Part shown: one piece after another, positions 22,020 through 22,540 of the stretch
How the letters are laid out: every line of letters starts with the position of its first letter
How positions within the stretch are numbered: the stretch's first letter is position 1
Virus record (IMG/VR): IMGVR_UViG_3300045988_007515
Coordinates: 1 to 39,688 of that record
Length of the DNA: 39,688 nucleotides
Source of the DNA: a virus
Strand: one strand, 5' to 3'
Made by a program: the position numbers and the translations under genes
The notes under the pieces: model-generated
The model's input: the letters and a program-made list of their open reading frames with translations, nothing else
Databases searched by the model: none
Told to the model about the DNA's origin: nothing

Positions 22020-22385
22020 TTCGTTTTGTTACCGGCCCCCGCCCCTTGGCCTTACATAGCAGACTTTACCCACCCCGAAGGGCTACAACGTGCCGCACTC
22101 TCAGGGCAGCGGCTCTCCTCTTTTGGTACGGCATTGCAGCCCTGCCCTGCTTTAGCGCTTCAGGGAAAGTCCCCGTCACTCGCTGTGGTCTTCTCTTGCG
22201 AGGCACCTATGCCGCATATTGGCCGTCTTCCCGCTTAGATTGTCACATCACCGATTGCTGCTTTACATGTGCAGCACCATTACGCTGAGGCGTTTCCCTC
22301 CCACGGTGCAGTTTTCAGCGAGCATTGTCATTTCCATGTGAGCCATGACGACAACGGTCTCACATTGTCCGGGCGCTCCCCGCCA
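22020..22385 (-). ncRNA. candidate large structured RNA / structured leader of the late operon
   Basis: No credible ORF. There is a 12-bp bulged helix 22102-22114/22138-22149, a CCC-UUCG-GGG hairpin 22073-22082, helices 22336-22342/22359-22365 and 22179-22183/22198-22202, and crossing pairings 22274-22278/22305-22309 with 22283-22288/22315-22320. Confidence 0.4.
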
Positions 22386-22457
22386 TGGTGCAGACGGCTG
22401 GGCTTGAACCAGCGCATACCTCCTGGCGTGGTGCTCTACCTTCTGAGCTACGTCTGC
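22386..22457 (-). tRNA. tRNA-like element with a non-canonical (shortened) anticodon arm; possible pseudo-tRNA
   Basis: Acceptor GCAGACG/CGTCTGC, D arm GCTC-AGAAGGTA-GAGC, T arm GCTGG-TTCAAGC-CCAGC, discriminator A and an encoded CCA. Only 18 nt sit where the anticodon arm plus variable loop (~22 nt) belong. Confidence 0.55.
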
Positions 22458-22483
22458 ATACCCCCGGCATCCGCCGGGGTCAG

Positions 22484-22540
22484 GAGGAAAGAAAAGATGG
22501 AAAGAATGAGGATACGGATATAACCCCGCACCCTCATTCT
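22484..22540 (-). terminator. terminator after the early operon
   Basis: Minus strand AGAATGAGG...CCTCATTCT followed by TTCCATCTTTTCTTTCC. Confidence 0.5.

Follow-up and report, generated by a model that had tools for sequence, protein, structure and literature searches.

The gap between a gene of the XRE family and the small terminase gene (terS) in a viral stretch of 39,688 nucleotides (nt), IMG/VR record IMGVR_UViG_3300045988_007515 (the whole stretch is called the window here), was found to hold several structured RNA modules, among them a transfer RNA (tRNA)-like element. The gap covers positions 22007-22588, i.e., 582 base pairs (bp), and every gene around it lies on the minus strand. 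Our best explanation, held with middling confidence, is that it forms an array of separately exchangeable RNA cassettes, processed as a tRNA-punctuated precursor into discrete stable RNAs. The boundaries of the modules, their covarying helices with a pseudoknot, and the strand were shown by comparing related loci. In the 5'-3' order of the minus strand, the array comprises a terminator-like hairpin, a GC hairpin, the tRNA-like element, a 3-nt linker, a pseudoknotted motif (M1M2), about 5 nt, a cloverleaf-shaped RNA (M3), a variable hairpin (M4), and the 5' untranslated region (5' UTR) of terS (M5). Such arrays were shown to precede the terS and terL genes of phages from Oscillospiraceae and other Clostridia, and they probably mark an undescribed class of phage RNAs carried on tRNA-shaped handles.

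A terS-based scan of IMG/VR yielded 80 loci whose terS proteins were 75-99% identical. A conserved 16-nt word of M1M2, TGTGAYAATCTAAGCG, matched at least 120 stretches in IMG/VR, and profile searches followed; the motif counts given here were taken over 298 loci, which is a small sample. Searched with blastn against the related loci, the gap gave a patchwork in which query positions 54-227 (the hairpins plus the tRNA-like element), 199-390, 377-477, and 511-594 recurred in differing combinations, orders, and distances. Modules were found alone, reordered, or with other neighbors by both blastn and nhmmer. At least four modules were separable in related phages, so the single fused leader of ~365 nt that had been proposed by an earlier reading of the letters (the sequence-only reading) was abandoned. 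ARAGORN called ordinary-looking tRNAs of many specificities at the equivalent place in other loci. Together with the orphan RNA motifs described below, the patchwork and the tRNAs indicated that the pre-terS gap is a slot collecting small-RNA cassettes.

The gap appeared to be non-coding. Only short, non-conserved open reading frames (ORFs) overlapped it, and none of 51 M1M2 representatives had an open sense frame, stops being present in all three frames and the lengths covering all residues modulo 3. The minus strand folded better than its shuffles (z = -3.2, 0 of 100 shuffles equal), with z = -2.3 for the plus strand. Much of the sequence-only reading was borne out here: it had found the stretch from the XRE gene to terS devoid of credible ORFs, it had described a structured, strand-specific non-coding region next to tRNA-like genes in a Firmicute phage, and each sequence feature that it listed was present on the minus strand where it had been placed.

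M1M2 (22220-22385; nhmmer E = 3.7e-42, match 22385-22215) is ~165 nt long in the window and 155-200 nt in relatives, and the profile searches gave 118 full-length and 19 core-only copies. Its predicted structure comprises four helices. P1 (22370-22382) is a hairpin, CCGGG-UAGCG-CCCGG, with the variants CUGGG/CCCAG and UUGGG/CCCAA; P2 (22336-22365) pairs AUGUGAG with CUCACAU; P3 (22317-22322 with 22230-22235) is a long-range helix, CUCGCU...AGCGAG; and P4 (~22305-22308 with 22249-22252) is a short helix that closes a region of variable hairpins (22287-22300 and 22257-22275). A pseudoknot joins the P2 loop (22347-22352) to the 3' tail just after P3 (22222-22227). Three joining strands were conserved, GGAAAUGACAAUG (22323-22335), GAAAACUG (22309-22316), and AUGUGACAAUCUA (22236-22248), and the best-conserved part of the motif was an asymmetric internal loop between P3 and P4, GCUGAAAAC / GUGUGACAAUCUAAGCG. 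The core was also found without P1, P2, and the pseudoknot, and several of the tails of such copies paired with the strand just 5' of P3. The internal loop was inspected by eye for a K-turn or C/D box, an 11-nt tetraloop receptor, an HDV or hairpin-ribozyme topology, and the conserved regions of RNase P, none of which fitted.

These helices were conserved as pairings. In a structural alignment of 19 representatives that were pairwise <90% identical, P1-P4 were 93.7% paired and eight pairs had changed on both sides. None of 500 shuffles reached the percentage paired, the number of changed cells, or the covariation score, one of 500 reached the changed-pair count, and slid controls were 23-56% paired. 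RNAalifold independently found P1, P2, and P3, with one P2 pair divided 9:9 between CG and GC. The pseudoknot scored a mean best helix of 5.15 across 49 sequences, compared with 3.82 ± 0.12 when the loops were shuffled. Its two strands switched together, as GUCGUC/GACGAC, AUCGUC/GACGAU, GCAG/CUGC, UCGGCUU/AAGCCGA, GAGCAG/CUGCUC, and CCGUCU/AGACGG. The helices and the pseudoknot were thus kept through many double changes, down to ~50% identity. The crossing pairings from which a pseudoknot had been suspected in the window alone proved genuine at 22347-22352/22222-22227, and covariation, for which a check of homologous regions had been suggested, was seen in P1-P3 and the pseudoknot. One pair was G-U in 18 of the 19 sequences and would be C-A if read from the opposite strand; such pairs fix the strand of M1M2. 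The minimum-free-energy fold of the gap instead built one long RNA through a helix between GCTCGCTG (M1) and CAGCGAG (M3). This fold was rejected because M1M2 and M3 are independent and because the M1 strand pairs, with covariation, with AGCGGG inside M1M2.

The same substitutions bear on whether the region acts as DNA, either as a pac or cos site recognized by terminase or as an attP core derived from a tRNA gene. Its position immediately upstream of terS would suit such a site, as would the hexamer GACAAU, which occurs three times in the M1M2 of the window (22323-22335, 22236-22248, and the P1/P2 junction), and the many IMG/VR contigs that end 0.05-3 kb upstream of terS. However, covariation preserves pairing and not sequence, G-U pairs are used, the variable hairpins change in length, and some copies of the motif lie in tRNA arrays that have no terS beside them. 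An attP core is unlikely because an apparent lysogeny module, including a 432-aa plus-strand ORF, lies at the far end of the window (35159-38681). We regard a DNA-level site as highly improbable, and the pac-only alternative of the sequence-only reading was dropped. A pac site could lie inside M5 or terS. As for the contigs ending upstream of terS (L014, L015, L027, L039, L042, L047, L048, L020, and others), their ends may be true genome termini, or the assembly may have broken at the mosaic, repeated tRNA-like cassettes.

Across the aligned loci, M1M2 was shown to be fused almost obligatorily to a tRNA-shaped unit, at the 3' end of that unit and irrespective of its identity. P1 started exactly 4 nt past a CCA (81 copies) or CAA (29 copies) in 110 of 114 M1M2 copies, and the units before these 110 had a perfect 7-bp acceptor helix in 100 cases and a T-loop-like motif in 103. 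The upstream unit was a called tRNA in 70 of 118 contexts, with 15 specificities, and it received a four-base-anticodon call from ARAGORN in three more. The calls were led by Trp(cca) with 28, followed by Thr(cgt) with 13, Cys with 8, and Gln with 5, and there were fewer of Met, Pro, Ala, and others. The 45 of 118 units without a call were mostly degenerate tRNA shapes, the remainder being M3 (two loci) and a few flanks that were truncated or were not tRNA. Downstream, M1M2 was followed within a few nt by M3, a tRNA, or another CCA-ended unit. Core-only copies lay between the tRNAs of multi-tRNA arrays in L244, L274, and L261.

The commonest upstream unit was a 77-nt tRNA-Trp(CCA)-like gene whose anticodon arm is normal and whose D region is aberrant (L025:2578-2654, L070:2245-2321, L033:2069-2145, L020:1701-1777, L022:2453-2529, and others). 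It was called by ARAGORN and stayed below the Rfam tRNA gathering score in the scanned loci. It may be a non-canonical phage tRNA.

The fixed spacing has to be set against the possibility that M1M2, by itself or together with M3 and M5, is a cis-acting leader of the late operon, working by processive antitermination like HK022 put or the Bacillus EAR RNA, or as a ligand or protein switch on terS, with the tRNA shapes merely co-resident. The array was always found on the terS strand, just 5' of terS/terL, where a long operon begins. The window has a terminator-like hairpin upstream, in L208 the core is followed by a terminator, and in L247 the order is core motif, terminator, and then terS/terL. 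In addition, M5 is conserved beside the Shine-Dalgarno sequence, and EAR, a known antitermination RNA, is also pseudoknotted. However, the interval from M1M2 to terS is variable and holds M3, tRNAs, a hairpin, or in some phages a whole gene. M1M2 also sits inside multi-tRNA arrays, for example in L244 and L274, and the window has no terminator between M1M2 and terS. Exact 4-nt spacing in 110 of 114 copies would be unexpected for a leader directed at the polymerase or the ribosome, and no known antitermination or riboswitch family matched. A cis-acting leader is therefore possible in our judgment, if unlikely.

The tRNA-like element of the window (22386-22457, minus strand) has a 7-bp acceptor stem (GCAGACG/CGTCTGC), a 4-bp D stem (GCTC/GAGC) with GG in the D loop, and a T arm with a 5-bp stem (GCTGG-TTCAAGC-CCAGC), followed by the discriminator A and CCA. 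It matched the Rfam tRNA model RF00005 at 22389-22457 with 49.5 bits (E = 8.7e-8; the gathering score is 29), so the 72-nt tRNA shape noticed by the sequence-only reading, with its acceptor, D and T arms, discriminator A, and CCA, is real. In this alignment 9 nt stand in the anticodon arm where the model has 13. A 13-nt stub, CCACGCCAGGAGG (22419-22431), replaces the 17-nt anticodon arm, and its best pairing is (A)CC/GG(U), giving 2-3 bp and a 9-nt loop. Neither a 5-bp anticodon stem nor a 7-nt loop with U33 and a purine at position 37 could be drawn. ARAGORN called no tRNA at 22386-22457, and it found no transfer-messenger RNA (tmRNA); it rejected the element because the anticodon arm is 4 nt short. 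The shortfall of about 4 nt and the ACC/GGT pairing with its 9-nt loop, both noted earlier by eye, agreed with the alignment and with ARAGORN. With no 7-nt anticodon loop and no ARAGORN call, the element is therefore tRNA-like and not a decoder. A small ORF starting from AGGAGG-U-AUG inside the stub was considered and rejected, as the spacing is 1 nt, the frame was not conserved, and the modules are swapped.

The short-armed form (GCACC-GCGCCAGGAGG-TATGC...) was kept in at least 15 contigs. An alignment of 13 members had its acceptor, D, stub, and T helices 99.2% paired, with six pairs changed on both sides, values that none of 500 shuffles reached (slid controls 33-43% paired). Compensatory changes were found in the acceptor and T stems, and locus L149 combined a wholly different acceptor stem (GGTTTCG/CGAAACC) with an identical stub. 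Judged by these copies, the tRNA-like element is a conserved lineage and not a one-off pseudogene. In the wider family with the GCAGACG scaffold, the segment between the D and T stems measured 8, 13, 19, 23, or 27-32 nt, and the acceptor, D, and T arms were intact despite this variation. Three variants of normal length (23 nt) lacked U33 in the anticodon loop, as read from their sequences. As arm lengths vary while the rest is kept, selection thus retains the acceptor stem, elbow, T arm, and NCCA, and not decoding.

For related scaffolds elsewhere, ARAGORN drew oversized loops (78-nt calls) or a four-base anticodon. Full-length relatives with an oversized anticodon loop occur at L007:2542-2619 and in L034, L041, and L055 (78-nt calls). 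For these ARAGORN reported either a four-base anticodon (tcga) or Thr(cgt) at position 35 of the 78-nt gene. They could be decoders of the frameshift type or additional variants that do not decode.

M3 (22124-22219, minus strand; nhmmer E = 1.6e-30) is an RNA of 96 nt with the shape of a cloverleaf. It is closed by a 7-bp stem (GCGGCAU/AUGCCGU) and ends in ACCA. Of its three arms, one carries a GNRA cap, another contains an internal loop, and the last has 4 bp and a loop of 7 nt; the four-way junction was predicted by RNAalifold and by minimum free energy. M3 is tRNA-like in outline only. It occurred in 90 of the 298 loci at >90% identity, with sharp boundaries and unrelated flanks, and it remained >90% identical where the terS proteins were only 75-79% identical. 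The closing stem had the compensatory variants GCAGCAU/AUGCUGC, GUGGCGC/GCGCCGC, and GCGGAAU/AUUCCGC, and there were a few more in the arms. M3 was placed before M1M2 (L001, L044, L082, L125, L185, and L210), after M1M2, or in loci without M1M2.

The conservation of these modules was used to weigh whether the region is a decaying remnant, that is, a tRNA pseudogene plus a selfish or neutral spacer spread by recombination. Decay could account for the highly variable length of the anticodon region, the mosaic structure, the small deletions of the window M1M2 relative to the consensus (in the linker and P1), and the rejection of the tRNA-like element by ARAGORN. However, a remnant would not be expected to keep its short-armed form in at least 15 contigs with compensatory changes, nor to exchange its acceptor stem while retaining the same stub, as in L149. 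The survival of the M1M2 helices and pseudoknot at ~50% identity and the excess of M3 identity over that of terS point the same way. Thus, we consider decay very unlikely.

Two further elements lie between M3 and terS. M4 (22092-22113) is a variable hairpin, GCCGC...GCGGC, that was found in some relatives only and was absent or replaced in most loci. M5 (22007-22083) was kept directly 5' of terS in most of the 80 terS loci, regardless of the upstream cassettes. It includes a hairpin GCCC-UUCG-GGGU (22072-22083), a hairpin GGCC...GGCC (22034-22051), and the Shine-Dalgarno sequence GGAAGUGAG (22010-22018). The UUCG-capped hairpin had already been recognized in the window. It was conserved in relatives as GCCC-tetraloop-GGGY, with a varying loop and a kept stem, next to a GGCC...GGCY hairpin. 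M5 is best read as the 5' UTR of terS, with a promoter or pac function as further possibilities. The 12-bp bulged helix that had been proposed at 22102-22114/22138-22149 fared differently: its complementarity is real and the minimum-free-energy fold contains it, but it was not conserved. It would pair M4 with the 7-nt-loop arm of M3, and it is unsupported because these modules occur independently and the partner is absent or changed in most copies.

In our favored reading, a tRNA-punctuated array, a single precursor transcript would cover the modules, made where the late packaging operon begins or just ahead of it. The close packing of the cassettes, a few nt apart and each bounded by a tRNA-type acceptor helix and NCCA, fits such a precursor. 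RNase P needs only an acceptor/T-arm minihelix with an elbow and NCCA, and an encoded CCA inhibits RNase Z in Bacillus. The tRNA-shaped units keep the acceptor stem, T arm, D/T elbow, and NCCA, and therefore would punctuate the precursor. Cuts by RNase P would fall 5' of the tRNA-like element and 5' of M3, and wherever a unit ends in CAA instead of CCA, RNase Z or another 3'-end enzyme would act. The products would be a tRNA-like-M1M2 RNA of ~240 nt, or RNAs of 72 and 165 nt if a 3' enzyme also cuts, together with the 96-nt M3. The M1M2 and M3 RNAs might then act in trans during late infection, and a protein or a second RNA would bind M1M2 at its highly conserved internal loop, the presumed functional site. 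What is left on the 3' side would be the terS mRNA, which would start near M4/M5 and carry its conserved leader. A role of the tRNA shape as an RNase P or RNase Z signal had been one alternative of the sequence-only reading, and it is the one we favored, given that the anticodon region shrinks, grows, or disappears without loss of the acceptor stem, T arm, elbow, or NCCA.

Several points weigh against this reading. The transcript, the promoter, the cleavage sites, and any role in trans are what we infer from sequence patterns, and a scan of 21900-22900 for sigma-70-like promoters found none. As most copies encode CCA, RNase Z should be blocked, which makes the separation of M1M2 from the tRNA shape questionable; because encoded CCA has this effect in Bacillus, the tRNA shape perhaps stays attached, and the fixed 4-nt linker suggests that it may remain joined as a functional domain of M1M2. 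The core-only copies in L208 and L247 are isolated, each having a terminator of its own and no tRNA beside it, so the fusion would not be essential to the core. The M1M2 of the window itself deviates, having a 3-nt linker and a 4-bp P1, and the register of P4 is ambiguous. The covariation of M3 rests on few sequences, owing to its high conservation.

In a bolder reading, M1M2 might be a new RNA class that needs its tRNA handle, with the anticodon-less element as an obligate domain. It could be a ribozyme or processing element working on the tRNA array, for example through self- or guided cleavage at the 4-nt junction, or a tRNA-mimic chimera that docks by its elbow and acceptor end onto tRNA-binding machinery or tRNA-directed immune effectors and blocks them. 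We hold this variant with little confidence and judge it improbable.

The pre-terS slot of sister phages also carried other cargo. An RNA of the 6A motif was found at L067:2847-2897 (62.1 bits), and DUF3800-VIII RNAs were found at L029:2675-2738 and L032:2877-2940 (48.5 and 46.5 bits), in each case within the pre-terS gap, where they adjoined tRNAs and partial M1M2 copies. No function was given for either motif in the DUF3800 literature. At L080:2512-2964 (plus strand) a protein of 150 aa was encoded that contains a domain resembling Tad2 (Thoeris anti-defence 2; PF11195, 8.2e-21). This insert of ~480 nt lay between the terS leader and the terS Shine-Dalgarno sequence and was flanked by a 12-nt direct repeat (query 566-577); the same insert, by its blastn pattern, was present in L009, L010, L013, L021, L024, L027, L033, and L079. 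This suggested that the slot is a hotspot for accessory or anti-defence cargo, and the array RNAs sharing it are candidates for RNA-based counter-defence.

An anti-defence RNA is thus a further alternative to the punctuated array: the tRNA shapes, alone or together with M1M2 and M3, would act as decoys or sponges that capture host immune effectors recognizing a tRNA acceptor end, elbow, or CCA tail, or M1M2 would inhibit another defense protein. The selection on the acceptor stem, elbow, and CCA without the anticodon would fit such a role, as would the Tad2-like gene of several sister phages and the 6A and DUF3800-VIII RNAs, which make the slot look like an accessory-cargo hotspot. Moreover, many defense systems target tRNAs, and phages counter them with tRNAs of their own. 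However, the argument is one of guilt by association. An anticodon nuclease could be decoyed only by an RNA that has the anticodon loop, the very part lost, and no nearby protein family was tied to M1M2. We rate this explanation as rather improbable.

Upstream of the tRNA-like element, the window carries two hairpins. The terminator-like hairpin (22492-22541) has a 17-bp stem (22541-22502) with seven G-C pairs, followed by the U-rich tail TCCATCTTTT. A G+C-containing stem stands directly before a U tract, as in an intrinsic terminator, which it would be on these features; a hairpin with a U-rich terminator had been reported at 22484-22540, and the 17-bp stem and U-rich tract were indeed seen at 22541-22492. 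In about nine related loci it moved together with the tRNA-like element as one module (query 54-227). The 7-bp G+C hairpin CCCCGGC-GGAT-GCCGGGG (22462-22479), also anticipated from the letters, lies 4 nt 5' of the tRNA-like element, and an identical one precedes this element in L129 and L120.

The array is flanked upstream by a 76-aa XRE-family helix-turn-helix protein (22589-22819; Pfam HTH_3, 1.4e-10), which is context outside the RNA array. Downstream, terS (21596-22006; Pfam GP3_package, 1.6e-19) leads a terS-terL-portal packaging operon with terL (20329-21606; Pfam Terminase_3) and a portal-sized ORF (18956-20293), all on the minus strand. Clustering of neighboring ORFs placed terS- or terL-like genes downstream in most loci and XRE-like and unannotated small genes upstream, and it revealed no protein specifically linked to M1M2. 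An HNH endonuclease gene (24606-24965; PF01844, 1.4e-9) lies on the same strand 2.6 kb upstream of terS; HNH genes often cooperate with terminase. ARAGORN also called a 97-nt tRNA-Arg(tcg) at 5117-5213 on the plus strand, which had no Rfam tRNA match, lies inside overlapping ORFs, and is probably a false positive.

Matches of the whole gap to GenBank phages by blastn were limited to two unannotated human-fecal contigs, so no annotation could be borrowed from a cultured phage. In bacterial genomes, full or near-full M1M2 copies were found in Lawsonibacter hominis NSJ-51 and Pseudoflavonifractor sp. Marseille-P3106. Core or partial copies were found in P. phocaeensis, Flavonifractor plautii ATCC 29863, Oscillibacter, and Clostridium viride DSM 6836 (two copies), and the motif was also present in metagenome-assembled genomes (MAGs) of Oscillospiraceae and Lachnospiraceae. 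The motif-confirmed genome matches were in Clostridia, bar two contigs binned to Bacteroidota. These short contigs, L271 (Prevotella sp. MAG) and L218 (Bacteroides sp. MAG, a 5-kb contig), carried full-length M1M2 and are likely mis-binned phage contigs. Most of the other genome-wide matches to the 16-nt word did not fit the motif model, and those outside Clostridia that failed it were taken as chance.

The two core-only copies of C. viride DSM 6836 (L208:2020-2087 and L275:6878-6952) lie on one contig, near genes resembling those of cold-shock proteins. In L208 a cspA-thermoregulator match reached 75.8 bits, just under the gathering score of 78. A possible integrase ORF was seen by eye near these copies.

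Phages of gut Clostridia are abundant and have hardly been studied experimentally. This locus yielded two well-supported classes without an Rfam match, M1M2 with at least 137 copies and M3 with at least 90, and a natural series of tRNA scaffolds that have lost only the decoding arm. The 4-nt rule provides a testable link between a phage non-coding RNA and the tRNA-processing or tRNA-recognition machinery, and it bears on the puzzle of why GOLLD and ROOL cluster with phage tRNAs. As cultured carriers exist, experiments are feasible.

Among catalogued RNAs, GOLLD and ROOL are structured, pseudoknotted non-coding RNAs of phages and prophages that are often found beside tRNA islands; they are probably co-transcribed with the tRNAs, and GOLLD sometimes has embedded tRNAs (PMC12286853, PMC5737381). 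The array shares this genomic setting, and by setting it belongs to the same guild, being phage-encoded, tRNA-adjacent, and of complex conserved structure, which is not family membership. Searched with 4227 Rfam models, the 801-nt stretch 21900-22700 matched only tRNA at E ≤ 10. Neither ROOL nor GOLLD was found in the window and 40 related viral loci at the gathering score, or in eight genome loci at E ≤ 0.05, and the matches in related loci were to tRNA, 6A, DUF3800-VIII, and one below-threshold cspA-thermoregulator. No model of Rfam 15 matched M1M2 or M3. ROOL, GOLLD, tmRNA, riboswitches, known ribozymes, HEARO, and similar RNAs were rejected on these searches, which removed the ROOL and GOLLD candidacy raised by the sequence-only reading. 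The units differ in size as well, M3 being 96 nt and M1M2 155-200 nt, compared with ~580 nt for ROOL and >800 nt for GOLLD. The chance that the array is a divergent member of ROOL, GOLLD, or another catalogued large ornate RNA is practically negligible. M1M2 is further set apart by the fixed 4-nt linker to the 3' end of a tRNA shape, and we know of no description of such a fusion for ROOL or GOLLD. The GOLLD and ROOL RNAs are reportedly treated by Weinberg et al. in 2009 and 2017 and by Kretsch et al. in 2025.

The 6A and DUF3800-VIII motifs, which are said to go back to Weinberg et al. in 2017, resemble M1M2 and M3 as small structured orphan RNAs of the pre-terS slot, but their sequences and structures differ, and neither occurs in the window. 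Compared with the canonical tRNA (RF00005), the element of the window has the acceptor, D, and T arms, the discriminator, and CCA, with an anticodon arm of 13 instead of 17 nt. HK022 put and the Bacillus EAR element are structured antitermination RNAs in the 5' part of long operons, the latter pseudoknotted. M1M2 differs from them: it matched no model, other cassettes lie between it and the operon, and it is linked to the 3' ends of tRNAs.

RNAs fused to tRNA-like shapes include the TMERs of MHV68 (with pre-microRNAs), MALAT1-mascRNA, plant tRNA-small nucleolar RNA dicistrons, and the tRNA punctuation of mitochondria. In systems of the TMER and mascRNA type, a non-decoding tRNA shape supplies the RNase P or RNase Z site that defines the end of its neighbor. 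The array shares with TMERs and MALAT1-mascRNA a non-decoding tRNA shape beside another RNA, with the parts read by the enzymes kept, as far as its letters tell. However, those systems are eukaryotic or eukaryotic-viral and the partner is a microRNA hairpin or a long non-coding RNA, whereas here it is a pseudoknotted motif and the CCA is mostly encoded. In phage T4, species 1 and 2 (RNAs C and D) are stable small RNAs of a tRNA cluster that are co-transcribed with the tRNAs and matured by the tRNA-processing machinery. The setting is alike by description, except that T4 is a virulent phage of a Gram-negative host and its cluster does not precede terminase. M1M2 and M3 apparently represent new RNA classes of the general kind of phage tRNA-island non-coding RNAs, and they may be among the 10,006 unnamed viral candidate RNAs predicted from IMG/VR (PMC10690425).

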